Source of the DNA: Ignavibacteriota bacterium
Lineage (GTDB): Bacteria > Bacteroidota > Ignavibacteria > UBA10030 > UBA6906
NCBI GenBank assembly: GCA_963801355.1
Contig: CAWDEM010000008.1
Coordinates: forward strand, 1,728,001 to 1,792,000
Length of the DNA: 64,000 bases
Direction of reading: 5' to 3'
Shown here: positions 17,165 through 31,746 of the stretch, piece by piece
How positions within the stretch are numbered: the stretch's first letter is position 1
Layout of the letters: each line of letters begins with the position of its first letter
Position numbers and translations under genes: made by a program
The notes under the pieces: generated by a model
What the model was told of the DNA's origin: nothing
Database searches by the model: none
The model's input: only the letters and a program-made list of their open reading frames with translations

Positions 17165-17269
17165 GTATGATCACACCAGGAAGTTGCTGTTGTCACCCCA
17201 TCGCTAGAACCAATGGGGTTATGCGTCTGCTATCAACTATCTAAGACGGGAATGCTGTATGCCGACGGG

Positions 17270-19732
17270 TCACTTGTGACCCCCGGCATCCTCCGAGCCC
17301 AGGACGAGGTACGCGCCTTTGATTGCTTGTGTTCGCGCTTCGATGGTGGAAACACCGGCCGGCAAGGGCTGAAACACAATCCGCGCGACCCCCGAGGAGA
17401 ATTCAATAACACGGCTGCCTGTCGGCGTTCCAAGGTCTGCCAGCAAATGCCCGCGTCCCTCGGAAGTAAAGTAGACCCGGTCACGGGCGGAGAGGCAGAG
17501 CCGACCCTGTTTGTCGACCGCCTTCACTGTCACCAGGATGTTCCCGCCGGGGAGAGGCTCGCCAGAAAGCAGAAGCGCATTGGGCGATCCATGCCGTTGG
17601 TGAGTGTATCGAACGATGAGAGAGTCTTTGACTATTCCACCGGAACCGTCGGCGCCGGCAGCCTCTATCCGGTTTTCCCCTTCCGCAAATTGTACATCCC
17701 AGACTTGCCCTGAGGCCGGAAATACGCCTGGCATGCGGACTCTCTTGCCCTGACTCTTCCCGTTTACCGTGAGCAGGACCGTATCACAATTGCTATAGAC
17801 GCGCACCTGCCGGGATACCCCCCCGGGTCCTGCACGTTCAGTCCATGTGTGCGACAAAATGTAGCAGAAGCGGGGTGATTGTGTCCACCGGCTCTTGAAA
17901 ACATAGAACGCATCCTTGGGATTTCCTGCGCGGTCCATCACGCCTTTCTGGTTCACATAGGGGATCGGGTTCTCGGGCCGCAGGGGCGTCGCAAAGTCTT
18001 TGAAGAGCCACTGGGCGTTTCCGGCGAACCACGGAAGCCTCTCGCTGACGCACAGGTGCCAGTCCAGAAGATCCACCATGTAGCTCTCACTCCAGTCCCC
18101 GGTGTTGGCAATCTTGATTTCCCGTTTCCGGACAAAGGTGGAGTCCCAACCATCCGTCGTCGTATATCCGTTGCCATCAATGGGATTTTCGACGTGGCGC
18201 CCCACATGGCTGTCACCACCGTATTCCATATGGAGCAGCCTTGGGTAGAGTTTGCGCGCTTCCTCAATTGCACTTTCGTAGTTGGCGTAGACTGAACTGT
18301 ACCACCCCATCCAGATCGAAGGCGAGAACACATCAGGAATGCTTGCCCCCTCGGGGAACCTTCGCATGGCTGTAACTCTTTCCGGATCCAGCGTATGTGC
18401 GATGCCGTTCAACTCGCGGAGGAAGGCCCGTATCGAATCCACATTACCCCTTGTCGGAGACTCCGCATCGGATTCCACTTCATTCCCAATTGACCAGAGG
18501 ATGATGCTCGGGTGATTGAAATTCTGCAGGATCATCTCCCGCAACATTCCGCGTGCATTCTCTTTCCATTGTGCGCCCCCCACCCCTCCCCGGCACCAGG
18601 GAAGCTCATCCCATACGAGCAATCCCAGCTGATCGCAGAGCCGGTAGACTTCAGGGTCCTGCGGATAGTGGCCAAGGCGGACGAAGTTCGCCCCCATTTC
18701 CTTGATTCCACGGAAGTCTTGGCGCGTGATGCTGTCGGGCACCGCACCACCAAACCCAGCGTGGTCCTCATGCCGCTGTGTCCCCCGAATCAGAAGGCGC
18801 TGCCCATTGAGATAGAACGGTCCCCCTTCCTTGAATTCGAACCAGCGGTAGCCGAATGTTTCCCTCGCGACATCCATCACCTTGTCGCCGTCGCCGATGG
18901 AGACCTCGAGTGCATAGAGTTCGGGTGAATCAGGTGACCAGAGCCGGGGAGATGGAACTGCAGGGAGTGCGAGTGCATGATGCGACTGCCCGGCCGGCAC
19001 ATCGACGCGTCGATACAACGTTGCGACGGCATGACCTCCGTTCCCGCGAATAGTCGCCCTGACATCGAGGCTCAACGGTCGACCGGTAGCATTCGCGATC
19101 TGGAAATCGACGCGCGTATCGGCGCTCACGCTGTCGACCCGGGGGGTGTGAATCCGGACGTTCTCGACGGAGATCTTGGGCCGGTATTTCAGCCACACAT
19201 CGCGAGTGATACCACCACAGAGTACGAAATCGGAGAGTTGCGACGGGAGCAAGTCCTCGTCCATCACATTATCCGCGTAAACCACTATCTGGTTCTCCGC
19301 TCCAAACACGACAAAAGGCGTTATGTCGACATCAAAACCGACGTACCCGCCGACGTGGCCACCCGCTTGCTTCCCATTGACGTGCACATCAGCCTTCATG
19401 TTGACCGCTTCAAACGTCAGGATCACTTTCATCCCGGATCGCGAATCGGGGACAAACAGTTTTCTCGTATACATCCCTATGCCGCGTCTGTATCCCGGGA
19501 CCATGTCCACTGCGTCGAATGCATTCCATGTGTGGGGAAGAGTTACCGGCACCCCGGTCCCCATTTTCTCATCTAAGAGGAGGTATTCGGTGGTCGGGAC
19601 ATCGAGATATTTCCAGCCGTCATTGAGCAGAATCGTCGAGGAATCTCGACGGCCGGCAGGCTCCGCAGGTGCCTGGTGAATGACGAGGCCGAGCAACAAC
19701 ACCTGAGCCAGGGAACGGGCAGAGTAGTTCAC
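17270..19732 (-). CDS. Glycoside hydrolase family 2 (beta-galactosidase-like), secreted
   Basis: LPHTWN, FEAVN, GGITRDV, FYLNG, RHED, NFVRLGHYPQ, NHPSIILWSIGNE, MEYGGD. Confidence 0.94.
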   Translation of the reverse strand: MNYSARSLAQVLLLGLVIHQAPAEPAGRRDSSTILLNDGWKYLDVPTTEYLLLDEKMGTGVPVTLPHTWNAFDAVDMVPGYRRGIGMYTRKLFVPDSRSGMKVILTFEAVNMKADVHVNGKQAGGHVGGYVGFDVDITPFVVFGAENQIVVYADNVMDEDLLPSQLSDFVLCGGITRDVWLKYRPKISVENVRIHTPRVDSVSADTRVDFQIANATGRPLSLDVRATIRGNGGHAVATLYRRVDVPAGQSHHALALPAVPSPRLWSPDSPELYALEVSIGDGDKVMDVARETFGYRWFEFKEGGPFYLNGQRLLIRGTQRHEDHAGFGGAVPDSITRQDFRGIKEMGANFVRLGHYPQDPEVYRLCDQLGLLVWDELPWCRGGVGGAQWKENARGMLREMILQNFNHPSIILWSIGNEVESDAESPTRGNVDSIRAFLRELNGIAHTLDPERVTAMRRFPEGASIPDVFSPSIWMGWYSSVYANYESAIEEARKLYPRLLHMEYGGDSHVGRHVENPIDGNGYTTTDGWDSTFVRKREIKIANTGDWSESYMVDLLDWHLCVSERLPWFAGNAQWLFKDFATPLRPENPIPYVNQKGVMDRAGNPKDAFYVFKSRWTQSPRFCYILSHTWTERAGPGGVSRQVRVYSNCDTVLLTVNGKSQGKRVRMPGVFPASGQVWDVQFAEGENRIEAAGADGSGGIVKDSLIVRYTHQRHGSPNALLLSGEPLPGGNILVTVKAVDKQGRLCLSARDRVYFTSEGRGHLLADLGTPTGSRVIEFSSGVARIVFQPLPAGVSTIEARTQAIKGAYLVLGSEDAGGHK

Positions 19733-19787
19733 ATCGCTCCGTGCAGGGGCAATTGGCGGGAATGGAGCAATCGGGATTCCAGGTGGT

Positions 19788-19890
19788 TTACCACGACTCC
19801 TTGAAAAACGATGCGTCGGTGAAGTATGATTTCGCCAATTCTTCCAGCTTCTTCATTTCTTCGGGCGGGAGCGGCTCAAACTCCCTTTCA
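19788..19890 (-). pseudogene. 3' remnant of a lost gene, resembling an aldo/keto reductase C-terminus
   Basis: EREFEPLPPEEMKKLEELAKSYFTDASFFKESW* is protein-like, while the upstream frame is not. The family assignment is from recall only. Confidence 0.4.
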
Positions 19891-20257
19891 CATAACCCAC
19901 GTGTAAGGGAAAGTAGCGGATTTGGCGGGCATACGCAAGAAGAATGGCGTCCCGGCACACTACGCCGCACCCTACACCGATATTGTAACCCATACTGCAA
20001 CCCACCCTGTGACACCGCCGATTCCTTTTCCGGTTTTGTTATCGCCGGCACTCGCGTGCTGGCCATGGTTGGCGAACGAAACAGACCAGACTTTGACAAA
20101 TCGGTGACAATCTCCGGTTTGGCTGTTCGCATATTGGTGCCAACGCTGTCCACGGGGGCGATTGCGGCTGCGCCTTCCACGCGTCAGCGAGATCTGTTGC
20201 ATCGCAGCCAGACAATGAATAACTTCCGGCACCTTCTCTTCCATACAGGAGCCAGAC

Positions 20258-22141
20258 ATGAAAACGCTCAGGGCTCTTCTTCCAGCCGCCGTTGCAGGCA
20301 TTCTCGCCGCCTCGATGGCAGTCCTTCTCATTCCGGGTTGCAGCCTGATTGGACTCTTCATCGGCAGCGGGATCGATGTCGTGTCACAGGATTCCATCCC
20401 TGTCTACTCCTGGCGTATCGATTCAGTGTTGCGGACCCACAATGTCACCGTCCTTCTGAAGGACGGCAACACATATCCCGATATGAACGTCCAGGTGAGA
20501 ATAGACTCATTCCCGGCGTACAAGCAGCGATTCGATGCTTTCGTTGCGACGCACGATTTCCCGGCATCGTATCCAAAGGTTATGGACTCGGTCATTGTGA
20601 CGACTAGCTCCGGGACTACGCTCTCCGCTCAATTGCTAGCGTATGATTTCGGACGTCTCGTACTGAAGCGGGACACAGGGAGGCTTTTGAATCTCAGTTT
20701 TGGGGATCCCCACATAGTCACAATGGGTGACGGCAAGTTTGCGACGCTGGGCCTGCGAACCACTGTGCCCGAGAGCGGTGTCCCTCTCTTGAGCTCACTA
20801 GCGCTAGTTGACGCGGCGTCGGGCGTATGCATCCGCACGGTGTCTCCTTACGACATCCAGCGAATCGAACACAACGACACGTCGGATGCCGGAACGGCCG
20901 GGTTCTTGATAGGCCTCGTCGTCGATCTAACTGTGGTCGCCGTGGTGACCTCGAATACAGGTCCTAGCACACCTCCTCCCCCACCGCGCGGGCAGGGGTC
21001 TTGTCCTTTTGTCTACAGCTATGATGGAAAGTCCTACATCCTGGATTCCGAGACATTCAGCGGTGCAATCCTCAAGGGGCTTCAGCGCACCGACTGCGAC
21101 AGGCTCGAATATCTCGTCGATATAGACAATACAGTCAAACTTAAGATTGCCAACGATCTCTCTGAGACTCAGTACGTGGATAATCTGAAGGTTCTTGCGG
21201 TCGATCACCCGCTACACACCACAATCGTAGCACGATCGCCATTTGATTTCTACACGATTGCCGTTCCACATGGTCCGCGAAGCGCAGAGGACTTCCGCGG
21301 GAATGTGATTACCCGGCTTGTGGTGGCAGACGACACTCTCTCCTGGATCAGCAACCCGGCCGGCAGAAGCCCCGGTGATCCGAATTCGATCCGCGATGGT
21401 TTGACACTCCGGTTCGATCGGCCGCGGGGAGCCCGTCGTGCCAAAGTGGTGCTCGCGCTTCGGAACACGCCGTGGGCCCTGGAAATGGAAGCTCAGCTCC
21501 TCCGCTTGCAGGGATCCGATCTGGAGCGCTGGTACGATGCGATGAATTCAGATGCCGACATGCGCGATGGATTCATCGATGCGGTGAAACGTGAAGCGAT
21601 GCTGCATGTGCAGATGTGGGATGGTCGATCATGGAAGACACTCGACTTCGTCCCGTTCCCCGGTCCGTATGTGGAGAAATCCACCGTCGCAATCGCGGAT
21701 CTGCAAGGAACACCGGAGACCGAGTTGGGTATCCGTATTGAATCCACCGCAGGACTCTGGACAGTGAATTCCGTGCAGGTCGATTTCACACCGGATATTC
21801 CTGTACCGGTTTCAGAAGCCCTATGTGTCGGAGCCCGTGACAACCATGGCAATGATCTCAGGCAGTCGCTCTCTGGAATCGATGGAACATACTACGTGCT
21901 CAAGCAGGGGGACGAAGCAGAACTCGCATTTTCGCTTCCGGCCAAAAGAGCCGGAAGATCACGCTCGTTCTTCCTGCTCTCGAATGGCTACTATACCATG
22001 GACATCCCTTCTGCAGGAACCCCGCAACGTGAGCTGTTGGCGCGGCTTGGCTCCGAGCCGGGAGCTTTTGGCAAGTATACCACCGGCCTTTTCAATGCAT
22101 GGGCGCACAGGGCGACGAGGGAACCGGAGGATATCAAGTAG
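20258..22141 (+). CDS. Hypothetical lipoprotein with GSCPFVYSYDG domain
   Basis: AGGAG RBS, lipobox-like LIPGC, internal hydrophobic helix, PPPPP linker, then a long beta-rich domain. Confidence 0.8.
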   Translation: MKTLRALLPAAVAGILAASMAVLLIPGCSLIGLFIGSGIDVVSQDSIPVYSWRIDSVLRTHNVTVLLKDGNTYPDMNVQVRIDSFPAYKQRFDAFVATHDFPASYPKVMDSVIVTTSSGTTLSAQLLAYDFGRLVLKRDTGRLLNLSFGDPHIVTMGDGKFATLGLRTTVPESGVPLLSSLALVDAASGVCIRTVSPYDIQRIEHNDTSDAGTAGFLIGLVVDLTVVAVVTSNTGPSTPPPPPRGQGSCPFVYSYDGKSYILDSETFSGAILKGLQRTDCDRLEYLVDIDNTVKLKIANDLSETQYVDNLKVLAVDHPLHTTIVARSPFDFYTIAVPHGPRSAEDFRGNVITRLVVADDTLSWISNPAGRSPGDPNSIRDGLTLRFDRPRGARRAKVVLALRNTPWALEMEAQLLRLQGSDLERWYDAMNSDADMRDGFIDAVKREAMLHVQMWDGRSWKTLDFVPFPGPYVEKSTVAIADLQGTPETELGIRIESTAGLWTVNSVQVDFTPDIPVPVSEALCVGARDNHGNDLRQSLSGIDGTYYVLKQGDEAELAFSLPAKRAGRSRSFFLLSNGYYTMDIPSAGTPQRELLARLGSEPGAFGKYTTGLFNAWAHRATREPEDIK

Positions 22142-22162
22142 AACCCACGACAGGGTGCCTCG

Positions 22163-23536
22163 ATGATACGTGCGTTTTCTGTCCCCACGGTGAACGAAGA
22201 CTGCGCTCTCCCTACTCAAAGACCCGGGACGCCGCCAGCCCTGTCGTTCCCGAGCGGCTGGCAACTTGTGCCGGTTACACTCCGCTATGTAGCCGCAATG
22301 CTGGAATATGCCCTCCGGCGCAGCGGATATCCTCACTTCCGCTTGCGGTCACTTCTCACGCTGAAGCGAAAGAAACTCATTGCCATACGGCGCATTGCCC
22401 GGTTGGGCAGTCACTACTACGGGACAACGATGCGGATCCCGCGATGGCCTTCCCGTGCCTTCGACAGGATGGTTGCCAACGGCGGACTCAACATCGAGGC
22501 GGACATTATTTCTGAGAAGCATCAGATCGATTCAGCGATCCTGTCGATCACACGCAAATGCTCCTACGCATGCGAACATTGCTCCGATTCAGTCAATCGT
22601 CATGCCGACGATATAGTCCCCGTGCAACGCTGGATCCAGACGGTGGGCGAGCTCCAGGCAGTTGGCACGAGCGTTATCATCCTCTCCGGCGGTGAGCCAA
22701 TGCTCCGTTATCCGGCTTTGCTCGAGATTCTGGGCAGCGCAGACCTGAATCTTTCGGATTTCCATTTGCACACTTCAGGCGCGGGTGTGACTCCTGCGCG
22801 CGCCAAGGAACTGGCCGGAAAGGGGTTGGTCGCCGCGGGCATCGGCCTTGACTACCCGGATGCCGCGCGGCAGGATCAATTCCGCGGCGTTCAGGGCGCT
22901 TTTGCCGCCGCAGTAGAGGCACTCCGACTTTTCGCAAGTGCCGGCGTGTTCACGTACACAAACCTGTGCCTGCAAAAAGACCTCATCGCCGGCAATGGAC
23001 TGTATGCATATCTCGACCTGGCAAAAATGCTGAATGTGGGCAGCGTGCAGCTGCTTGAACCCAAGCCGTGTGGTAAGTATGCCACCCACCCGGCTGACGG
23101 GCTTTTCTCCGACGCAGACCGGACTGAAGTCATGAAGTTCTTCATCGATGCGAATCAATCGAAGCAATTCAAAGACTATCCACCCGTCGCCTACACAGCC
23201 TACTACGAGAGGCCGGAGAACTTTGGGTGTCTGATGGGTGGACTCTCCCATCTTGCAATTGACGGAAACGGTAATGTGAATCCCTGCACCTTCGTTCCTG
23301 TATCGTTTGGCAACATCATGAACGAGGGATTTGCCGAGGTGTATCGACGCATGCGCGGTGTAATCTCACGACCGCACTACGGTACGTGCGCCTCCGTCTG
23401 TCTGAGCCCGGCCCTTGCCCGCTACAGGTTGCAGAGGGGAGCTCAAACGGTGCACTATAGTCAGTTCAGGAAGGAATGGCAGGCGGTGTTCTCTCCATCA
23501 TTCACTGAGACCCATAATGCCTCAAAAAGTGCCTGA
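22163..23536 (+). CDS. Radical SAM protein with SPASM/twitch-like C-terminus
   Basis: CSYACEHC, SGGEP, GCLMGG...IDGNGNVNPCTF...GNI. Start codon uncertain. Confidence 0.9.
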   Translation: MIRAFSVPTVNEDCALPTQRPGTPPALSFPSGWQLVPVTLRYVAAMLEYALRRSGYPHFRLRSLLTLKRKKLIAIRRIARLGSHYYGTTMRIPRWPSRAFDRMVANGGLNIEADIISEKHQIDSAILSITRKCSYACEHCSDSVNRHADDIVPVQRWIQTVGELQAVGTSVIILSGGEPMLRYPALLEILGSADLNLSDFHLHTSGAGVTPARAKELAGKGLVAAGIGLDYPDAARQDQFRGVQGAFAAAVEALRLFASAGVFTYTNLCLQKDLIAGNGLYAYLDLAKMLNVGSVQLLEPKPCGKYATHPADGLFSDADRTEVMKFFIDANQSKQFKDYPPVAYTAYYERPENFGCLMGGLSHLAIDGNGNVNPCTFVPVSFGNIMNEGFAEVYRRMRGVISRPHYGTCASVCLSPALARYRLQRGAQTVHYSQFRKEWQAVFSPSFTETHNASKSA

Positions 23537-24755
23537 GGTAGTGGCCGAACTCTCCGTCGACGTCAACCGGCTGTTCCGGATGCCGTGGAAAACAAGCGAC
23601 AACGCGATGTCGTGGCTCGAGCCGACGCGCAAGTGCAATATCACCTGCGATGCCTGCTTTGCGATCAATGATCCTCTGAGCCAAAAAACTCTTGCGAAGA
23701 TCGAACACGAACTTGATACGCTGTTGAGGCTTCGCCGGACCGATGCCGTTCTCATCGCCGGCGGCGAACCCCTCACCCATCCCGACATCGTCGAGGTCGT
23801 CACGATGGTGAAGCGGAGGAAGGTCAAGGCGCAGCTGGTGACGAACGGCGTCGGGCTCGACGCACACCTCCTGCACAGACTCCACACCGCCGGTCTGTAT
23901 GGGATCACGTTTCATGTCGACAGCCATCAGGCTCGCCCCGGCTGGAAGGGAAAGAACGAACGGGAGCTCAATGTCCTCCGGCAACAGTTCGCCGACCTGG
24001 TGCGCACTGAGGGTAGGCTGGTATGTGCGTTCAATACCACGGTGTTCCCCGACACGCTGCACTTTCTCCCCGATATCGTTGAGTGGACAACCCGCAACAT
24101 CCGCGACGTAAGCGTCATGACACTCATTGCTGCAAGGATGCTCAGCCCCGACCTGCCATTCGAATTCTTCGCAGGTGGACGGAAGGTCGACCTCAAGGCA
24201 ATGGGTTTTTTCTCTGAGGTCCATCACGCAAACCTGACGACCATCGACATGTACCGGGAAGTGAAACGAGCGCTCCCTGATTATGAATTTGCCGCTTACG
24301 TTGGGGGGACTGCGATCCCCACATCGCTCAAGTGGGGAATCGCGTGCCGCGTGGGCAGCGGTAGACATTCATACGGAAATATGGGCCCGAGGTCTATGGA
24401 AATCCTCCAGAATGCCTATCACCTCTGGAACGGGTGCTATCTCTCGTATGCGCGGCCGGGATTGAGCCGTCAGGGTAAAGCGCTCCTGTTGTTTGGCCTG
24501 TTCGACCCCGAGGTGAGAAAGACTGCAAAGCATTACCTCCGTGCAATCGTCAGAAACCCGCTGCGGCTGTTCGAGCGGCTCTCAGTGCAGACCATCAGCT
24601 TGCTTCAACCCCTGGATATCCTGCCCAACGGAGAACAGGACAATTGCGATGGATGTCCGAACGGGACCGTCTGGCAGGACCGCATTGTCCCGGCCTGCCA
24701 GTTGGACAATTTCAAGAAGTTCGGCGGTCCGGTAACAATGGTTCCCCGTAGATAA
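23517..24755 (+). CDS. Radical SAM protein with C-terminal Cys motif
   Basis: CNITCDAC, AGGEPLTHP, VTNG, FHVDSHQ, C-terminal CDGCP...RIVPAC. Overlaps the previous gene by 20 nt. Confidence 0.9.
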   Translation: MPQKVPEVVAELSVDVNRLFRMPWKTSDNAMSWLEPTRKCNITCDACFAINDPLSQKTLAKIEHELDTLLRLRRTDAVLIAGGEPLTHPDIVEVVTMVKRRKVKAQLVTNGVGLDAHLLHRLHTAGLYGITFHVDSHQARPGWKGKNERELNVLRQQFADLVRTEGRLVCAFNTTVFPDTLHFLPDIVEWTTRNIRDVSVMTLIAARMLSPDLPFEFFAGGRKVDLKAMGFFSEVHHANLTTIDMYREVKRALPDYEFAAYVGGTAIPTSLKWGIACRVGSGRHSYGNMGPRSMEILQNAYHLWNGCYLSYARPGLSRQGKALLLFGLFDPEVRKTAKHYLRAIVRNPLRLFERLSVQTISLLQPLDILPNGEQDNCDGCPNGTVWQDRIVPACQLDNFKKFGGPVTMVPRR

Positions 24756-24762
24756 TCCTCCG

Positions 24763-26343
24763 ATGAATACCCGGGCTCCCTTTCACAGGATACTTCTCAC
24801 CACGATCCACCAGCCGCTCGGCATCGAGTCTCACAACTCTACCCGTAACATGCAGGCCGAAATGTACAACGCCCAGGTAACGCTCAGTCAGGGTGCATTC
24901 AGCATTCGGGCGGTATGTACTGGATGGGGACTGGAGTTCATTGCTGCCAATCTCAAAACCTCCACGACAGTGCTCCACTATCCCACCCTCCGGCGCCTCA
25001 AGAGCGAGTTGCACAAAGGGTATGACTTCATCGGGATCAGCTTTGCGATTTGTACGTATCCAAAGGCTGTGGAAATCTGCAGGCTTGTCCGCGACTGTGC
25101 CCCGCACACCAAAATCGTACTGGGCGGGTACGGAACGGTGCTGACGGAATGTGACCAGCATGCTGATTATGTCTGCCGCGAGGAGGGGGTGATTTTTTTC
25201 AGACGTCTTCTCGGTGAATCAGAGAACGACAAATTCACGCTGCCCGTCATCATCCGGAAGCTCAAGGTGTTATCGGTTTCCACCGGTCCCGAACTGATCG
25301 TGCCCACCGGCCTGGGGTGCTCCAGGGGGTGCGATTTCTGCTGCACCAGCCACTTTTTCAACAGGCGCTATTATCCGCTCGTCAGGAGCGGAAAGGAGAT
25401 ACATGATTTCATCTGTTCCGTGGATGTGGGCAAAAGCACCTACCGGGATGTCGGAATCATCGACGAGGACTTTCTTCTTGATCACTCCCGGGGTAGAGAA
25501 CTGGCGGAATGGAACTCCCGGGAATTGGAAAAACCCATTCTCTTTTCATGCTTGACTTCGCTTAAGAGTATCTCCCAGTATTCGACAACCGAACTGCTCT
25601 CCATGGGACTCGCGGGCGTATGGGTGGGGATTGAATCCAAGCAGGCAACCTACGGCAAACTGAAAGATGTCGACGTTGCGCGGACGGTGACCGACTTGAA
25701 GGCCAACGGTATAAGCGTGCTGGCATCTATGATCCTCGGTTACGATTGGCACGATACAAGCTCGATTGAGGATGACTTCCAGTACCTTCTCTCCCTCAAA
25801 CCGACTCTCAGCCAGCTGATGCTCTATAGTCCGTGTCCCCAGACTCCTCTTTACGAACGTATGCGCAGGGCAGGACGCATGCTGGAAGTCCCCTATCAAT
25901 ACTATGACGGATTCCATCTCCTCTTCACACACCCCCACTTCTCTTCCGGGGAGCTGGAGAGGCTTATCATGCAATTATTCGAGCGTGAATATGAGGAACT
26001 GGGTCCGTGCATTTTCCGCGTACTCGAAGTGCACCTGAACGGATTCGAGCAGTTGAGGAACGGCGAGAGAGTTTTGTTCCGGAGGCGGGCACGTGAACAC
26101 CAGCGGATGGCATTGGAGATCTATCCTCTTCTCCGCATGGGAATCAGCAAGGCGCCGTCGGGTCATGTGAAAGACTACCTGACAAGCTTGCGGGAACGGA
26201 TGGAGTCGCTTATGCGAATTCCCATATCTGCCCGGTATCTGCAGCTTGCCGTACCCTTTCTGTATCACTACACCGATTGGCATCAGAAACGCCCATACGC
26301 TCAACCGCGAGAGATCATCCACCGCTATCGTCAATCGGCGTGA
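24763..26343 (+). CDS. Cobalamin (B12)-binding radical SAM protein
   Basis: YDFIGISF...KIVLGGYG B12-domain pattern, GCSRGCDFC, IIDEDF, VGIES, SPCPQTPLY. Confidence 0.9.
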   Translation: MNTRAPFHRILLTTIHQPLGIESHNSTRNMQAEMYNAQVTLSQGAFSIRAVCTGWGLEFIAANLKTSTTVLHYPTLRRLKSELHKGYDFIGISFAICTYPKAVEICRLVRDCAPHTKIVLGGYGTVLTECDQHADYVCREEGVIFFRRLLGESENDKFTLPVIIRKLKVLSVSTGPELIVPTGLGCSRGCDFCCTSHFFNRRYYPLVRSGKEIHDFICSVDVGKSTYRDVGIIDEDFLLDHSRGRELAEWNSRELEKPILFSCLTSLKSISQYSTTELLSMGLAGVWVGIESKQATYGKLKDVDVARTVTDLKANGISVLASMILGYDWHDTSSIEDDFQYLLSLKPTLSQLMLYSPCPQTPLYERMRRAGRMLEVPYQYYDGFHLLFTHPHFSSGELERLIMQLFEREYEELGPCIFRVLEVHLNGFEQLRNGERVLFRRRAREHQRMALEIYPLLRMGISKAPSGHVKDYLTSLRERMESLMRIPISARYLQLAVPFLYHYTDWHQKRPYAQPREIIHRYRQSA

Positions 26344-26376
26344 ACAGATGCGAAAGCCCGGGGTCTGAAGGGTGCC

Positions 26377-27501
26377 ATGTCATTGATCATAAGAACAGTG
26401 CAGTCGCAGAGGGAGATGAAGCGCTTCATCCGGCTTCCGGGGATCATTCATGCTCATCATGCAGGGTGGGTGCCGCCGATCTATTCCGACGACAAAAGGA
26501 CATTCGATCCCCGCCGCAATCTGGCCCATGGTTATTGCAGCAGCATCTATGTTCTTGCCTATGAGGATGGCACGGTGGTAGGCAGAGCCGCCGGCATCAT
26601 CAACTGGCGCTACAACAGCTTCCGGGACTCACGCACTGCACGATTCGGCTACCTGGAATCCCCCCAGAGAGATGACGTAACCGCTGCATTGCTGCATCGC
26701 ATCGAAGCATGGGCGCGTGCGGAGGGCATGACAAGAATCGTCGGCCCGATGGGTTTCACCGAAGAGGATCCCGAAGGTTTCATGATTGAAGGTTTCGATC
26801 AGCTGCCCAACCTCTCGACGTATCACAACTTCCCATCGCTCCCGGAATCGCTTGAACATCTCGGCTACTCCAAAGAGGTGGACTATGTTGTGTACCAGGT
26901 GCCTCTGGCGACGGCACTGTCCGATACGTACCGGCAGATATACGAGCGGGTCCGCAGGAAAGTGGAGTTCACCGTGGTGGAATTCACGCGTCGCCGGGAG
27001 ATTGAACCCTACATTCGCCCCATCTTCCGGCTTATGAATGAATGTTTCGTCCCTATCTATGGATACTCACCCCTTGACGAACAGGAGATGGATCTGCTTG
27101 CCCGGCGATACATGCCGGTGGTGGACCCACGGTTCATAAAACTCGTCACAAATGCCCAGAGAGAATTGGTCGGCTTCATCATCGGAATCCCCAGCATTGC
27201 GGATGGCATCCGTCGCGCAAAGGGGTGGTTGTTGCCGTTCGGCATCTTCAAGATCCTGAGGGCACGGCGCCGGGCACACAAATTGGATCTCTACCTCGGC
27301 GGCATCAAAGGATCCTGTCGTGATCGAGGTGTCGACATCCTGCTCGGCTGTAGCATAATCGAGTCGGCCACAAAGGCGGGATTCGATTTCATGGATAGCC
27401 ACCACGAACTGGAGCTGAATGTGAAAATGCGTTCCGAGATGGAACGGATCGGCGGACGCATATACAAGCGCTACAGAATATTTCAGAAGGGCCTGGGATG
27501 A
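26377..27501 (+). CDS. YghO-like GNAT acyltransferase, bacterial ceramide synthase (bCerS)-like
   Basis: FIRLP...WVPPI...DPRRN, VVGRAAGIIN, RFGYLE, EAWARAEGM..IVGPMGF, GFMIEGFD, YKRYRIF. Confidence 0.8.
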   Translation: MSLIIRTVQSQREMKRFIRLPGIIHAHHAGWVPPIYSDDKRTFDPRRNLAHGYCSSIYVLAYEDGTVVGRAAGIINWRYNSFRDSRTARFGYLESPQRDDVTAALLHRIEAWARAEGMTRIVGPMGFTEEDPEGFMIEGFDQLPNLSTYHNFPSLPESLEHLGYSKEVDYVVYQVPLATALSDTYRQIYERVRRKVEFTVVEFTRRREIEPYIRPIFRLMNECFVPIYGYSPLDEQEMDLLARRYMPVVDPRFIKLVTNAQRELVGFIIGIPSIADGIRRAKGWLLPFGIFKILRARRRAHKLDLYLGGIKGSCRDRGVDILLGCSIIESATKAGFDFMDSHHELELNVKMRSEMERIGGRIYKRYRIFQKGLG

Positions 27502-28244
27502 CCGGAGAGAAACAGAGGTCGCGGTACCTGACAATCACGCTTTCGTTCTACGTGATATGGACTGCTCTGTTCATTGCTGAAGGATTCTACGTCGTCACCT
27601 TGCCGACAACTGATTTGTCGTCCTGGTTCGACAGGCATCTGCCGGTGGTGCCGGAATTTGTCTGGATCTACGTTCTCTGCTACGTGTTTCCGTTCACTAC
27701 CCTATTCGTAGTGTCCGATTGGCACCGTTTCAATATCGCCCTCCTGAGCATCACGATGTGCACATGTGTGGCTTATGTGTTTCACATCGCCATTCCCGTG
27801 GCATTCCCCCGCCCCACCCTGGGATCATCGCTATCGTCTCAAATGCTGGCATTCATTTATGACAACGACTTCAAACCGGGTGCGCAGAATTTCCCAAGCC
27901 TGCATGTTGCAATCGCACTAATCATTTACTTCACATGCCGGCAACAGGGCTTAGGTAAAACCGCGGAGTGGGCGATTCTCGCAATAGCATTGCTGATCGT
28001 CCTTTCCACTGTATTGATAAAGCAACATCTGGTCATTGACCTTGTCGGAGGAGTGGCCCTGGCGGTAGTCGTCTGGGGAGTCCTATCACGAGTCTATTGG
28101 CGTGCTGTTTTCGCGGAGGAAGAACCCCTCCATGCTTTGGCAACAATGACGAGGAGACTGGCCCCTCTGTATCTCTTTTCTGCAGGGTGTGTGATTGCGA
28201 CGGGAATAGCCCGGGCAATGATTACCGGTTCGCCCGGAAAGTGA
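27498..28244 (+). CDS. PAP2 superfamily membrane protein (Aur1/IPC-synthase-like)
   Basis: Multi-TM, FDRHLP, PVAFPRP, NFPSLHVA, STVLIKQHLVID. ATGA overlap with the GNAT gene. Confidence 0.85.
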   Translation: MTGEKQRSRYLTITLSFYVIWTALFIAEGFYVVTLPTTDLSSWFDRHLPVVPEFVWIYVLCYVFPFTTLFVVSDWHRFNIALLSITMCTCVAYVFHIAIPVAFPRPTLGSSLSSQMLAFIYDNDFKPGAQNFPSLHVAIALIIYFTCRQQGLGKTAEWAILAIALLIVLSTVLIKQHLVIDLVGGVALAVVVWGVLSRVYWRAVFAEEEPLHALATMTRRLAPLYLFSAGCVIATGIARAMITGSPGK

Positions 28245-28349
28245 ATTCCTCCCCTTTCGGGCCGAATTGCCGTTGTAACTCCATTCTTGCTTTCATCGTA
28301 TGTATATAATCTGTATCATATCTGACATTCCCAGAGGAGGCCATTCTTC

Positions 28350-31300
28350 ATGAAATCCACCCGAATTACACTGCTTCTCTGTTTCGTTGTGCTTGGACTG
28401 GTTCCTGCCAGCACGCTGGCTCAACTCGACGCGCGTATGATGCGCAACCCGCATGTGTCCCAGACACAGATCGTCTTCTCGTACGGCGGCGACCTGTGGC
28501 TCGTTCCGAAAGAAGGAGGCACCGCGGTCCGGCTCAGCTCCCCGAAGGGGGAGGAACTGTTCCCCCGCTTCTCTCCCGATGGCAAGTTCATTGCGTATAG
28601 CGCGGAATATGATGGGAACCTGGACGTGTACGTCATCCCGAGTACCGGCGGAGAGCCCGTCCGGGTCACTTCCCATGGCTACGCTGACCGCGTCGTCGCA
28701 TGGTATCCCGACGGTTCCCGGATCCTGTTCGCCTCGGCAATGGTCTCGGGGCGTCAGCGCTTCAATCAGTTCTTCAGCGTAAGTCCAAAGGGCGGCCTCC
28801 CCGAGAAGCTGCCGCTTCCGTATGGAGAGATGGCTTCCTTCTCGCCCGATGGGAAGAAACTCGCCTACACCTATGTGACACAGGCGTTCCGCACATGGAA
28901 GCGCTATCGCGGCGGATGGGCGCCGGACATCCATCTGTTTGACCTGGAGAAGATGACCGACGAAAACATCACCGCGAACATTGCCATTGACGAGTTCCCG
29001 ATGTGGCATGGTGATAAGATCTACTTCCTCTCAGACCGCGGACCCGAGCTGAGGATGAATGTCTGGGTCTATGATATCAACTCAAAGCAATCCCGCCAGA
29101 TCACTTCATTCAAAGACTACGACATCACATTCCCCGCATTGGGGAAATCGGAGATCGTGTTCGAAGCCGGCGGAAGACTCTATCTGCTGGATATCGCCAC
29201 CGAAAAGTCGCGCGAGATTCCGGTGAAGGTAGTTACAGATGAAATCACTCTGCTTCCCCGCATGGAGAACGTCAGCAAGCTGATCCGGAACTACAGCATC
29301 TCCCCTGACGGCAAGCGTGTGCTCATCGAAGCCCGTGGCGAGGTTTTCTCCGCGCCGGCGGAGAACGGCCCCGTGTTCAACCTGACGCGCAGCTCCGGAT
29401 CGGCCGAACGCTATCCTGCCTGGTCTCCCGATGGCAAGCGTGCCGCGTATTGGAGTGACAAATCCGGGGAGTATGAACTGACGTTGTACGATTTTGACAA
29501 ACGCTCCGAACGGTCGGTCACTTCCTACGGGCCCGGCTACCGCTACAACCTCTACTGGTCTCCCAATAGCGCGATGATCGCGTTCATTGACAAGGCAATG
29601 CAGATCAAGATCTATGACATCGAGAAAGATCGCACGGTCGACGTCGACAAGGAGAAATATCTCTACGAGGGAGGACTCATCGGTTTCAGCGTGAGTTGGT
29701 CGCCGGACAGCCGATGGCTTGCCTACGCCCGTGAACTTGACACCAGAAGCAGTGCCATCTGCCTCTACGACACAAAAGAAGCAAAGAGCACACAGGTGAC
29801 ATCCGGATATTATTCGGACATGCAGCCATCATTCGACCCGGACGGCAAGTACCTTTACTTTCTTACGAACCGGAACTTCGTGCCGGTCTATTCGGACATC
29901 GACGGCACCTGGATTTATCCAAACGCGACGGTCATCGCCGCCGCAACTCTGAATGACGATGTCCTCTCGCCCCTGGCCCCCAAGAACGACACACTCGCGG
30001 TAAGCGCCAAGGGAACACTGGAGAGCGACAAGGGGAAGAAGGACGAAAAGAAGGACGAGAAGAAGGACGAAAAAAAGGACGAAAAGAAGGACGAAAAGAA
30101 AGAGGAGAAACCAAAGGAGACCAAAATCACTCTGGCCGGTTTCGAGCAACGGGTCGTCATCCTTCCGCCCGCAGCAGGCAACGTCGGCAATGTGGCCGGT
30201 ATAACCGGAAAGGTTCTGTTCCTCCGAGTACCGAACACCGGTTCGGCCGAGAAGAAAAAAGCGTTGATCTACTACGATCTCGAGAAGCGCGAGGAGAAGA
30301 CCATCGTCGACGACATCGACTTCTTCGAGCCGAGCGCAGACGGAAAGAAGCTTCTGATCGGCAAGGGGACAAACGTCGCGGTGGTCGACATCGCGGAAAG
30401 TCAGAAGATGGACAAGAAGGTGCCAAACGGCAACCTTACGATGACCGTGGACCCGCGGGCTGAATGGAAGCAGATATTCAACGACGTGTGGCGGCTCGAA
30501 CGGGACTTTTTCTACGACCCGAACATGCACGGGGTAGACTGGGATGCTATGCGGACTCGTTATGCGAAGCTTCTGGAAGGTGCCGTTACACGCTCGGATG
30601 TGAATTTCGTTATCGGCGAACTGATCGCAGAGTTGAACGCTTCCCACACCTACCGGGGTGGCGGCGACCTGGAGCAGCCTGAAAGAATCAATGTCGGCTA
30701 TCTTGGCATCGACTGGGAACTCGCTAACGGAGCCTACCGGATCAAGAACATCGTTAACGGCGCCGCGTGGGACACGGAGGTCCGTTCATCGCTTTTGATG
30801 CCCGGCCTCAAGGTAAAACAGGGGGACTATATCCTTGCCGTTAATGGCGAGCCCATTGACGGCAGCCGCGCACCCTGGGAAGCATTCCAGGGACTGGCTG
30901 ACCAGACAGTCGAGCTGACGGTAAATTCCAAACCCTCCATGGATGGAGCCTGGAAGATTACGGTCAAAACCATGGCCGATGAATCGCGTCTCCGTAATCT
31001 CGCATGGATTGAGTCGAACCGGCGGCGCGTCGATGAAGCCTCCGGCGGCCGGATCGGGTACGTCTACGTCCCCAGCACGGGCACCGACGGACAGACTGAG
31101 CTCGTGCGTCAGTTCGCGGCTCAGTTCATGAAGGATGGAATCATCATCGACGAGCGGTTCAACAGCGGCGGGCAGATCCCGGACCGGTTCATCGAGCTTC
31201 TTGACCGGAAGCCCCTTGGATTCTGGGCTGTGCGCGACGGAAAGAACTGGCAGTGGCCTCCCATGGCGAATTTCGGCCCGAAGGTGATGCTCATCAACGG

Positions 31301-31646
31301 ATGGAGCGGCTCAGGCGGCGATGCGTTCCCCGACTACTTCCGGAAAGCGGGTCTCGGCCCCCTGATCGGTTCGCGCACATGGGGCGGCCTCATCGGCATC
31401 AGCGGCGCGCCGGCGTTAATCGACGGAGGAAGCGTCACGGTTCCGACATTCAGGCTCTACCAGCCGGACGGTACATGGTTCAAGGAGGGGCACGGCGTGG
31501 ACCCGGACATTTCTGTTCCTGAGGACCCGGCGAAGCTGGCAAAGGGAGTGGACACGCAATTGGAAAGGGGAATAGAGGAAGTCATGAAGACGCTCAAGGC
31601 ATCACCTTCCCCCTTCCCGAAGCAACCACCGTACGAGAAGAGGTAG
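28350..31646 (+). CDS. Tricorn protease homolog (peptidase S41)
   Basis: Signal peptide, FSPDG/WSPDG propeller repeats, ELNASHT, PDZ, DERFNSGG, SGSGGD, GSRTWGG, EGHGVDPD. Confidence 0.96.
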   Translation: MKSTRITLLLCFVVLGLVPASTLAQLDARMMRNPHVSQTQIVFSYGGDLWLVPKEGGTAVRLSSPKGEELFPRFSPDGKFIAYSAEYDGNLDVYVIPSTGGEPVRVTSHGYADRVVAWYPDGSRILFASAMVSGRQRFNQFFSVSPKGGLPEKLPLPYGEMASFSPDGKKLAYTYVTQAFRTWKRYRGGWAPDIHLFDLEKMTDENITANIAIDEFPMWHGDKIYFLSDRGPELRMNVWVYDINSKQSRQITSFKDYDITFPALGKSEIVFEAGGRLYLLDIATEKSREIPVKVVTDEITLLPRMENVSKLIRNYSISPDGKRVLIEARGEVFSAPAENGPVFNLTRSSGSAERYPAWSPDGKRAAYWSDKSGEYELTLYDFDKRSERSVTSYGPGYRYNLYWSPNSAMIAFIDKAMQIKIYDIEKDRTVDVDKEKYLYEGGLIGFSVSWSPDSRWLAYARELDTRSSAICLYDTKEAKSTQVTSGYYSDMQPSFDPDGKYLYFLTNRNFVPVYSDIDGTWIYPNATVIAAATLNDDVLSPLAPKNDTLAVSAKGTLESDKGKKDEKKDEKKDEKKDEKKDEKKEEKPKETKITLAGFEQRVVILPPAAGNVGNVAGITGKVLFLRVPNTGSAEKKKALIYYDLEKREEKTIVDDIDFFEPSADGKKLLIGKGTNVAVVDIAESQKMDKKVPNGNLTMTVDPRAEWKQIFNDVWRLERDFFYDPNMHGVDWDAMRTRYAKLLEGAVTRSDVNFVIGELIAELNASHTYRGGGDLEQPERINVGYLGIDWELANGAYRIKNIVNGAAWDTEVRSSLLMPGLKVKQGDYILAVNGEPIDGSRAPWEAFQGLADQTVELTVNSKPSMDGAWKITVKTMADESRLRNLAWIESNRRRVDEASGGRIGYVYVPSTGTDGQTELVRQFAAQFMKDGIIIDERFNSGGQIPDRFIELLDRKPLGFWAVRDGKNWQWPPMANFGPKVMLINGWSGSGGDAFPDYFRKAGLGPLIGSRTWGGLIGISGAPALIDGGSVTVPTFRLYQPDGTWFKEGHGVDPDISVPEDPAKLAKGVDTQLERGIEEVMKTLKASPSPFPKQPPYEKR
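30036..30107 (+). repeat. In-frame 12-bp tandem repeat encoding (KKDE)5-KKEE linker
   Basis: aagaaggacgaa units within the tricorn CDS. Confidence 0.9.
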
Positions 31647-31681
31647 GACTTCGAACCAGTCTTGACTCGGCCTTTCATGCA

Positions 31682-31713
31682 ACGATGCCCGCCGGTTCGC
31701 CGGCGGGCATCGT
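31682..31713. terminator. Strong hairpin between convergent genes (probable terminator)
   Basis: ACGATGCCCGCCGG-TTCG-CCGGCGGGCATCGT, 14-bp perfect stem; no clear U-tract. Confidence 0.7.
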
Positions 31714-31746
31714 CGTAACCAGTCCGCTGATCTTCACGTCCTGCCT

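Follow-up and report, generated by a model that had tools for sequence, protein, structure and literature searches.

A candidate lipid-tailoring island with paired radical SAM genes and a YghO-superfamily N-acyltransferase in an Ignavibacteriota bacterium

Bacterial sphingolipid synthesis (Spt, bCerS, CerR) and lipid tailoring by radical S-adenosylmethionine (SAM) enzymes (Tes, Mss, Gms, Gmm, Grs, Hpn) have until now been two unconnected fields, which the cluster family described here would link. On the sphingolipid side, Caulobacter CC_1154 and yghO (ECD_02850) are listed as aca genes required for dihydroceramide synthesis in the accessible part of PMC9386255; because yghO is paired there with CC_1154, a dihydroceramide N-acyltransferase, we place YghO in the bacterial ceramide synthase (bCerS) family. 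BT_1522, a bacterial AUR1 homologue from Bacteroides, is described as required for phosphoinositol dihydroceramide synthesis (PMC9246714, available portion). On the radical SAM side, Tes is described as holding three [4Fe-4S] clusters (two auxiliary) plus a rubredoxin domain (PMC13459092), and in Thermococcales the gene for the C-C cross-linking enzyme Gms neighbours that of the B12 radical SAM methylase Gmm, which acts on the same chains (PMC11214058, PMC13459092; available portions). A 2026 review of lipid-modifying radical SAM enzymes (PMC13459092) lists, in its accessible text, Tes, Mss, Gms, Grs, Gmm, Cds, HpnH/J/P/R, Jaw5 and ladderanes; that text lists no sphingolipid- or ceramide-acting enzyme, and the word 'ceramide' does not occur in it. 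Here we describe a block of six genes in a 64,000-nt stretch of DNA (hereafter, the window) from an Ignavibacteriota bacterium (GCA_963801355.1, contig CAWDEM010000008.1, positions 1,728,001–1,792,000, forward strand). We lean slightly towards the reading that the block encodes an accessory route to a lipid built by N-acylation of a sphingoid-type amine, radical C-C or methyl chemistry on alkyl chains and addition of a phospho head group.

The open reading frame (ORF) list of the window shows six tightly packed ORFs on the plus strand (20258–28244). An earlier note, made from the sequence alone, had singled out the last five of them (22163–28244) as co-oriented genes with overlaps or gaps of 33 nt or less, and the junctions are indeed −20, +7, +33 and −4 nt. 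These genes encode rSAM1, a SPASM/twitch radical SAM enzyme (22163–23536); rSAM2, a 412-aa radical SAM enzyme with a GDGT-MAS/Tes-like predicted fold (23517–24755); B12-rSAM, a 526-aa protein with a B12-binding-like N-terminus (24763–26343); a 374-aa tandem-GNAT N-acyltransferase of the YghO superfamily (26377–27501); and a 248-aa PAP2_3 multi-pass membrane protein (27498–28244), the start of which overlaps the GNAT stop by 4 nt. The sixth gene, missed by that note, encodes a 627-aa lipoprotein-like membrane protein (20258–22141, same strand) and ends 21 nt before rSAM1. For rSAM2, whose longest frame opens with TTG at 23415, the start was set at the ATG of position 23517, in agreement with where 20 homologues begin. 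The note's further statements, that the window holds neither a serine palmitoyltransferase nor a precursor peptide, agree with our searches: tblastn over the genome placed all three alpha-oxoamine synthase (AOS) genes outside the 64-kb window, and no convincing or conserved small ORF was found upstream of the genes. Scans for promoters (sigma-70) and terminators gave counts not above those of shuffled sequence.

Compared to the closest genome found (G002; G and L numbers denote genomes and loci, and the window's own genome is G000, whose contig C8 holds the window), the block is a structural difference. G002 belongs to the same genus and is 93% complete; its GH2 and Tricorn-type protease proteins are 85% and 92% identical to those of the window, and in G002 both genes lie 1.5 kb apart on one contig. 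Alignment of G002 contig C62 with the window by blastn covered 17001–19884, 19881–19952 and 28274–31827 at 79–86% identity. Because these flanks align up to 19952 and from 28274, window positions 19953–28273 have no counterpart in G002, and the six genes form one indel block, likewise overlooked in the earlier note, that was therefore gained or lost as a single unit. No mobility gene was seen at the block. At the thresholds used, no rSAM1 or PAP2 homologue was found in four same-genus genomes, and the best rSAM2-family matches there were 38–40% identical, the level of a housekeeping paralogue. We interpret the block 19953–28273 as an accessory island of two modules, A (rSAM2, B12-rSAM, GNAT and PAP2_3) and B (lipoprotein and rSAM1).

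Module A appears, from gene content and homology, to be one version of a recurrent lipid pathway in anaerobic FCB-group and Acidobacteriota bacteria. B12-rSAM, the rarest gene of the recurrent core, was used as its marker: among 401 sampled phylum members, only the window's own genome has it at E ≤ 1e-40. Metagenomes scanned with three aligned B12-rSAM orthologues yielded 20 loci at 53–75% identity (L127 and L001, which show the same identities, were counted as one locus), in which the other core genes were counted by tblastn with the window proteins. An rSAM2-family gene lies within 1.5 kb of B12-rSAM in all 18 loci with the upstream side present (L129 and L139 are cut), and a window-type GNAT follows the pair in eight (L127, L129, L130, L131, L132, L135, L136 and L139) of the 14 loci with at least ~1 kb downstream, being absent from L126, L137, L138, L140, L141 and L142. 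A saccharopine-dehydrogenase-like (SDH-like) gene is present in 6 of the 20 loci, a Spt-like AOS in L130, L134 and, as a weak fragment, L141, a window-type PAP2 in one, and rSAM1 or the lipoprotein in none. Locus L130 shows the unbroken order SDH-like, AOS, rSAM2, B12-rSAM, GNAT; L133 carries three more rSAM2-type paralogues in tandem, and rSAM2-type copies range from 1 to 4 per cluster. The closest rSAM2 (78%) and B12-rSAM (75%) are preceded directly by a CDP-alcohol phosphatidyltransferase gene, with no GNAT after them (L126:7988–11560); upstream, L126 also encodes a 2000-aa alpha-2-macroglobulin-like protein. The conserved core is thus rSAM2 and B12-rSAM, with the window-type GNAT as a frequent third member, so that of the five-gene set proposed in the earlier note only this part recurs. 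Hosts of the cluster family are anaerobes of wetlands, sediments and digesters (Ignavibacteria-like, Aminicenantes and others).

Related clusters were also found in other genomes of the bacterial family. G007 (same family, other genus, 61% complete) encodes an AOS (460 bits on Spt), PAP2_3, rSAM2 (52%), B12-rSAM (60%) and GNAT (46%) and, on the opposite strand, rSAM2-type genes (some split), rSAM1 (49%) and two lipoprotein homologues; when both strands are combined, all six window families plus an AOS occur together again in a different order. The AOS proteins of L014, L130, L134 and G007 all match Spt (CFB type) best among NCBIfam models, at 438–493 bits vs ~370–394 for BioF. Because a second Spt-like gene (480 bits each) lies elsewhere in the G007 and L014 genomes, their cluster AOS is an extra copy, and the L001 and window genomes have one Spt-like gene. 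A set that is analogous and non-orthologous to the window cluster was found in G005 (L154, G005:C248:1–11546), with, on one strand, a contig-cut radical SAM gene, a YghO-like GNAT, two B12-type radical SAM genes, an AOS, a FemAB-like/Acetyltransf_6 gene and PAP2_3; its 592-aa AOS has a ~230-aa N-terminal extension and scores best on BioF (372 bits; Spt 343). Elsewhere in the window's own genome, L153 (G000:C8:1986000–2002000) holds co-oriented genes for a DAGK/YegS-like lipid kinase, an AIR-synthase-related protein, the second AOS of that genome (best NCBIfam BioF, 375 bits; Spt 357) and a 478-aa B12-type radical SAM protein, with a paralogue of the 627-aa lipoprotein 2 kb upstream on the other strand. 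No transporter, nonribosomal peptide synthetase (NRPS) or polyketide synthase (PKS) gene was consistently present in the related loci.

The earlier note had counted three different radical SAM types in the run, and domain searches bear this out, with SPASM in rSAM1, a Cys tail in rSAM2 and a B12-binding-like N-terminus in B12-rSAM. rSAM2 matches Pfam Radical_SAM at 44 bits without a Pfam SPASM match. Its CX3CX2C motif (C40/C44/C47) is invariant in 21 aligned homologues, which also conserve four further cysteines (C170, C377, C380 and C394), the last three forming a C-x2-C-x13-C tail (CDGC...C). A profile of these 21 sequences found 7tol as its best PDB match (E 4e-15, radical SAM core only; next 1e-9). 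The AlphaFold model (pLDDT 90.2) extends this similarity beyond the core: Foldseek placed 7tol/7tom first (E 1.5e-13, ~455 columns, TM 0.56–0.59; next viperin, 251 columns), and VIA-align against representatives gave 7tom_A a Z of 23.6 over 304 residues (root-mean-square deviation 3.7, model residues 14–404) with viperin next at Z 17.5. This predicted GDGT-MAS-like fold supports the lipid-type radical SAM chemistry that the note had proposed. More than half of the genomes examined (34 of 61, counting the window's own) have an rSAM2-family match at E ≤ 1e-20. In B12-rSAM the motif CSRGCDFC is invariant in three orthologues, and its NCBIfam matches (HpnJ 47, BchE 31 and PhpK 29 bits, residues 176–414) are all far below cut-offs. 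The neighbouring Gms and Gmm genes are the nearest precedent for the rSAM2/B12-rSAM pair.

By BLASTP the GNAT aligns with E. coli K-12 YghO over its full length (25% identity over 377 columns, E 3e-40), as the earlier note's description of it as YghO-like implied, and scores 20.4 bits on Pfam Acetyltransf_1 (cut-off 20.7). Its AlphaFold model is a tandem GNAT (pLDDT 88.9), for which the best Foldseek matches were MAB_4324, a clavulanate tandem GNAT, a glucosamine N-acetyltransferase and MshD; by sequence, no PDB relative was found. Among 4800 candidates, 1157 proteins are relatives at E ≤ 0.001, the best 120 being 50–71% identical, and a relative is present in 447 of 490 candidate stretches of species genomes, chiefly in metagenome-assembled genomes of Cloacimonadota, Aminicenantes and other Acidobacteriota, KSB1 and Gemmatimonadota. 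The window's own genome has a candidate Spt route, as the earlier note's proposal needed: the best of its three AOS genes is Spt-like (G000:C8:997596–998981; 480 bits on the CFB-type Spt model, cut-off 640) and is followed directly, 750 kb from the window block, by a canonical YghO-type GNAT that is 33% identical to YghO (E 6e-73) and 25% to the window GNAT. At this locus (L124, G000:C8:988000–1007999) the Spt-like gene has a ~65-aa N-terminal extension, and the order on one strand is Spt-like gene, canonical GNAT, class IV aminotransferase, universal stress protein. A third, more distant YghO-superfamily GNAT (L151, G000:C4:1430170–1431288) is 30% identical to the window GNAT. Genes for a histidyl-tRNA-synthetase-like protein and a histidine/aromatic ammonia-lyase come right after it, and many members of the phylum encode proteins with similar scores (330–370 bits against the window-type profile).

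Both GNAT types, window-type and canonical, were present in five of five other genomes tested (two Cloacimonadota, two Aminicenantes and one KSB1), and in the KSB1 genome the canonical gene starts 186 nt after a Spt-like gene. A quick IQ-TREE analysis was made of 36 rows: the window GNAT, 10 of the best 120 relatives and 25 GNATs cut from loci. The seven canonical rows comprise E. coli YghO, the Spt-adjacent GNATs of G000 and KSB1, and homologues from two Cloacimonadota and two Aminicenantes (20–36 kb from Spt or unlinked); Caulobacter bCerS was not among the rows. These seven split from the 29 others, including the window GNAT, with an SH-aLRT of 100, in a tree in which the YghO and third-paralogue branches are long. 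YghO-superfamily GNATs occur in 381 of the 401 sampled genomes of the phylum, and only 4 of the 401 score >450 bits on the window-type profile; because they are nearly ubiquitous, a GNAT-Spt co-occurrence profile across the phylum is uninformative.

Neighbourhoods of window-type GNATs were surveyed at the best 80 of the 447 loci, and among these only L001 and L014 contain any other cluster gene. L001, from a Bacteroidota metagenome-assembled genome, repeats the order rSAM2, B12-rSAM, GNAT, PAP2 at 70, 69, 62 and 50% identity and is the only such locus among the best 80. L014 (Aminicenantes) combines a Spt-like AOS (493 bits on the CFB Spt model vs 394 on BioF), three rSAM2-type genes, the GNAT and an SDH-like gene. 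Thus, GNATs of the window clade adjoin Spt-like genes in L014, L130 and G007. In most Aminicenantes loci the GNAT lies alone between an RnfC-like gene and an opposite-strand polA. In L005 a PAP2 gene comes after the GNAT, and in L072 the gene 700 nt beyond the GNAT encodes a DAGK-type kinase. AIRS-like and DAGK-like genes were also seen after window-type GNATs in L031 and L072. At L158 (G064:C1:1326000–1345999), three tandem rSAM2-type paralogues (~37% identical to window rSAM2) adjoin an SDH-like gene and a further B12/DUF4070 radical SAM gene.

The last gene of module A is a PAP2-type membrane protein, as first described, with a Pfam PAP2_3 match of 52 bits (cut-off 27) and about six hydrophobic segments by hydropathy. 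Its family is very small, with just 28 relatives in a search of 5.8 billion clustered proteins. In 12 aligned members, PSLH and S170-x6-H177-x3-D181 are invariant and RP is nearly so; the members lack the Lys of the classical first PAP2 motif. AUR1 belongs to PF14378. An orthologue follows the GNAT in L001/L127, and divergent PAP2_3 genes occur in the G007 and G005 clusters.

Module B behaves as a separate pair that shares an island with module A in two genomes. The 627-aa lipoprotein has a lipobox-like signal sequence ending in ...LLIPGC, a second hydrophobic helix at about residues 210–235, a proline linker and a conserved C-terminal domain opening with SCPFVYS(Y/F)DG; it matches no Pfam or NCBIfam family, and its look-alikes in the Atlas are unnamed clusters only, commonest in Bacteroidota. 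This distribution, together with a Por_Secre_tail match, is in line with an FCB-group affiliation of the genome. rSAM1 has matches to Radical_SAM (59.9 bits) and SPASM (26.7 bits, cut-off 21.5), a ~110-aa N-terminal extension, CX3CX2C at C133/C137/C140 and later cysteines at 356, 375, 409 and 413; these four post-core cysteines fit a twitch-like half better than the seven-Cys SPASM motif. Its best NCBIfam match is AhbD (94.7 bits, far below the cut-off of 500), and a sequence search of the PDB ranked PqqE and SkfB highest. Only 4 of 61 genomes have rSAM1 homologues at E ≤ 1e-40 (G000 twice, G007, G013 and a fragment in G015), and a lipoprotein homologue adjoins rSAM1 at all four full-length loci, two of which are far from any module A gene. 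The second pair of the window's own genome (C8:1125781–1128260; rSAM1 43% identical) lies away from lipid genes. Most likely, rSAM1 matures or works with the membrane-anchored lipoprotein. By its linkage, the SPASM/twitch enzyme, which the earlier note had made part of the lipid pathway, belongs instead with the lipoprotein in a separate module. A broader reading of the block as a locus for ribosomally synthesised and post-translationally modified peptides was rejected, as there is no conserved small ORF before the genes and there are no peptide-type neighbours in related loci; of this reading, only the idea of rSAM1 as a lipoprotein maturase is retained. The rSAM1 matches at G013:C8:412587–413933 and G007:C5:10788–11930 contain two and one in-frame TGA codons, respectively, within the match as reported; these may fall inside the genes, as selenocysteine or a frameshift, or in the N-terminally extended portion of the match.

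In the slightly favoured pathway, a Spt-like AOS would make a sphingoid-type (long-chain) amino-ketone or amino-alcohol, supplied here in trans from the sole Spt-like gene (G000:C8:997596–998981) and in some relatives in cis. The paralogous GNAT would then N-acylate this amine, either as the amino-ketone or in its reduced form. By analogy with GDGT-MAS, rSAM2 may abstract hydrogen from saturated chain carbons and form a C(sp3)-C(sp3) bond, giving a cross-link, a ring or a tail-to-tail coupling in or between chains, and B12-rSAM could methylate or cyclise an unactivated chain carbon. Finally, the PAP2_3 protein would transfer or trim a phospho head group. While the gene content, homologies, folds, linkage and indel are observed, the substrates, the step order and every chemical reaction in this scheme are our proposal. 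A bolder version, which we regard as possible and on the unlikely side, is that the GDGT-MAS-fold rSAM2 and B12-rSAM cross-link, cyclise or tail-join the saturated chains of sphingoid-type amide lipids in anaerobes of several phyla, yielding membrane-spanning or ring-bearing 'bola-ceramides', with the paralogous GNAT as the dedicated N-acyltransferase.

Several observations weigh against such a pathway. The window contains neither an AOS nor an SDH-like gene. Judged from its sequence, the GNAT is placed in a separate paralogous clade outside the YghO/Spt-linked (bCerS-type) clade, in which the earlier note would have had it; because it falls outside that clade and a canonical paralogue coexists, its amine substrate may not be a sphingoid base. 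In most genomes the window-type GNAT is standalone among housekeeping genes, and profile searches of five such genomes found B12-rSAM in none and rSAM2-type genes in one, as three tandem copies beside an SDH-like gene and far from the GNAT. Thus, the main role of the GNAT would require no radical SAM partner, and the radical SAM genes look like optional tailoring functions on top of a base pathway. rSAM2 is no orthologue of Tes (58.4 bits on NCBIfam NF045702, cut-off 450, radical SAM core only), and because of this low score and its four extra cysteines, enough for one auxiliary cluster vs two in Tes, its chemistry may differ. A standalone rSAM2 paralogue (39–46% identical) is common in the family without lipid-gene context; its neighbours in the own genome and eight relatives are variable (MFS, CorA, POR and others) and uninformative. 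For B12-rSAM, the Pfam B12-binding match (25.6 bits) is below the cut-off of 32.1, no Radical_SAM match was found at E 0.01, and a profile search returned no PDB relative. The PAP2_3 profile found only PgpB, a phosphatase, in the PDB (E 0.019; no match with the single sequence), and the protein may act as a phosphatase or as a transferase.

Three other explanations were weighed. The first, in line with the earlier note, would make the GNAT the ceramide synthase of the organism, the PAP2 protein a transferase of the inositol phosphorylceramide (IPC) synthase type and all three radical SAM enzymes tailors of serine-derived sphingolipids in a single five-gene pathway. The full-length YghO homology, the Spt-like gene of the genome and the Spt-like genes in cis in related clusters favour it, as do the PAP2_3 type with intact His/His/Asp positions and the requirement for the AUR1 homologue BT_1522 in phosphoinositol dihydroceramide synthesis, so described in the available portion of PMC9246714. 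We nevertheless consider it rather improbable: the GNAT lies outside the YghO/Spt-linked clade (SH-aLRT 100) and the genome has its own canonical GNAT right after Spt, so by the earlier note's own criterion the window GNAT is not 'the' bCerS, and both types coexist in the five other genomes as well. Moreover, rSAM1 goes with the lipoprotein, not with lipid genes, and is absent from all 20 metagenome loci, and nowhere in the material searched do the five genes recur together as a pathway set. A different proposal is that the product of the core (AOS, SDH-like, radical SAMs and GNAT) is no bulk membrane lipid; it would be a small specialised metabolite that diffuses or is secreted, such as an N-acylated, radical-modified amino-ketone, amine signal or antibiotic, with PAP2 as an unrelated phosphatase or a resistance or export helper. 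A patchy, island-like distribution (B12-rSAM in one of 401 phylum genomes, the block absent from the closest genome) and the variable rSAM2-type copy number would suit this, autoinducers are among the products of AOS enzymes (with scores of 192–217 bits on the NCBIfam model for alpha-hydroxyketone autoinducer synthase), and relatives of saccharopine and carboxyspermidine dehydrogenases form C-N bonds. Such a product seems to us of low probability in view of the recurrence of integral-membrane lipid enzymes (PAP2_3 in four clusters, a CDP-alcohol phosphatidyltransferase in one), the membrane-lipid enzyme that is the closest fold to rSAM2, the best scores of AOS copies on Spt models and the lack of a consistently present transporter, NRPS or PKS gene.

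The radical SAM pair might instead tailor ordinary fatty-acyl or glycerolipid chains, making membrane-spanning chains of the diabolic-acid type or extra-methylated chains as proposed for lipids like branched glycerol dialkyl glycerol tetraethers, with GNAT and PAP2 as neighbours that share an acyl pool. Locus L126, where the closest pair accompanies a CDP-alcohol phosphatidyltransferase without a GNAT, and the lack of a GNAT after B12-rSAM in 6 of 14 assessable loci speak for it, and the accessible parts of PMC11868695 and PMC13459092 propose that membrane-spanning lipids are made by bacterial homologues of Tes and Mss. Against it, a GNAT follows the pair in eight of these 14 loci from diverse lineages and Spt-like genes join the clusters, and in the window the genes are spaced by ≤33 nt, with GNAT and PAP2 overlapping by 4 nt, a packing that favours co-translation as one pathway. 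We regard this last explanation as very unlikely, and a sphingoid-type amide-lipid pathway remains the reading towards which we lean.

At the left flank of the block, the window retains on the minus strand only the last ~30 codons of an aldo/keto-reductase-like gene (19741–19884), the C-terminus of which matches an ORF that is intact at this site in G002; the left block end and non-coding leader (19953–20257, plus strand) has no counterpart in G002:C62 and contains short unconserved ORFs only. A 288-aa ORF with a GTG start (19741–20607) was discarded as most likely spurious: it matches no family, runs into the lipoprotein gene and covers the aldo/keto-reductase-like remnant on the opposite strand. 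On the right, the block ends with 28245–28273 (plus strand), G002 homology resumes at 28274, and a Tricorn-type protease gene with Tricorn domains by Pfam follows (28350–31646).

If the favoured pathway is correct, there is a second widespread YghO-type N-acyltransferase family, which may have been lumped with true bCerS in homology surveys, bacterial GDGT-MAS-fold enzymes gain a testable substrate, and new lipid structures are predicted for which geochemists can search. The bola-ceramide version would add an undescribed lipid class, the first radical SAM tailoring of sphingolipid-like lipids and a possible source of orphan sedimentary biomarkers. G000 and G002 form a natural presence/absence pair that, together with the compact four-gene core, makes these ideas directly testable.

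No published description of this cluster was found in the literature searched, the coverage of which stopped short of subscription-only papers and supplements, in keeping with the earlier note's remark that no characterised cluster has this composition; the comparison with known systems is therefore made part by part. Module B resembles SPASM/twitch radical SAM maturases whose genes neighbour those of their protein substrates, as with anaerobic sulfatase maturases, in the Radical_SAM and SPASM domains of rSAM1 and in its lipoprotein neighbour at four full-length loci; the partner differs in being a 627-aa membrane-anchored protein outside known families, and rSAM1 has four post-core cysteines only. 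With AUR1-type IPC synthase (BT_1522), module A shares a small multi-pass PAP2-superfamily protein with conserved catalytic His/His/Asp beside sphingolipid-type genes, whereas the window PAP2_3 family is tiny (28) and its only PDB profile relative is the phosphatase PgpB. The bCerS pathway (Spt, bCerS CC_1154/E. coli BL21 yghO, CerR) is matched by the full-length YghO homology and tandem-GNAT architecture of the GNAT and by the linkage of a Spt-like AOS to its clade in L014, L130 and G007. It differs in that the window GNAT belongs to a separate clade and coexists with a canonical Spt-adjacent GNAT, in the SDH-like gene of some relatives and in the radical SAM partners, which are not part of the pathway in the available portions of its published description. 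The archaeal tetraether synthase Tes/GDGT-MAS (7TOL, 7TOM) is the best structural and profile match of rSAM2, and both have extra cysteines for auxiliary clusters, even though rSAM2 is shorter (412 aa vs ~500), has four extra cysteines and lies in an amide-lipid rather than an archaeol gene context. Gms and Gmm, compared here by description in the accessible texts, act on isoprenoid tetraethers, and Gms, the GMGT synthase, is a SPASM/twitch enzyme with a COG4001 domain, whereas rSAM2 has no Pfam SPASM match; their arrangement, a C-C-forming lipid radical SAM gene beside a B12 radical SAM gene, is mirrored by rSAM2 and B12-rSAM in 18 of 18 assessable loci.

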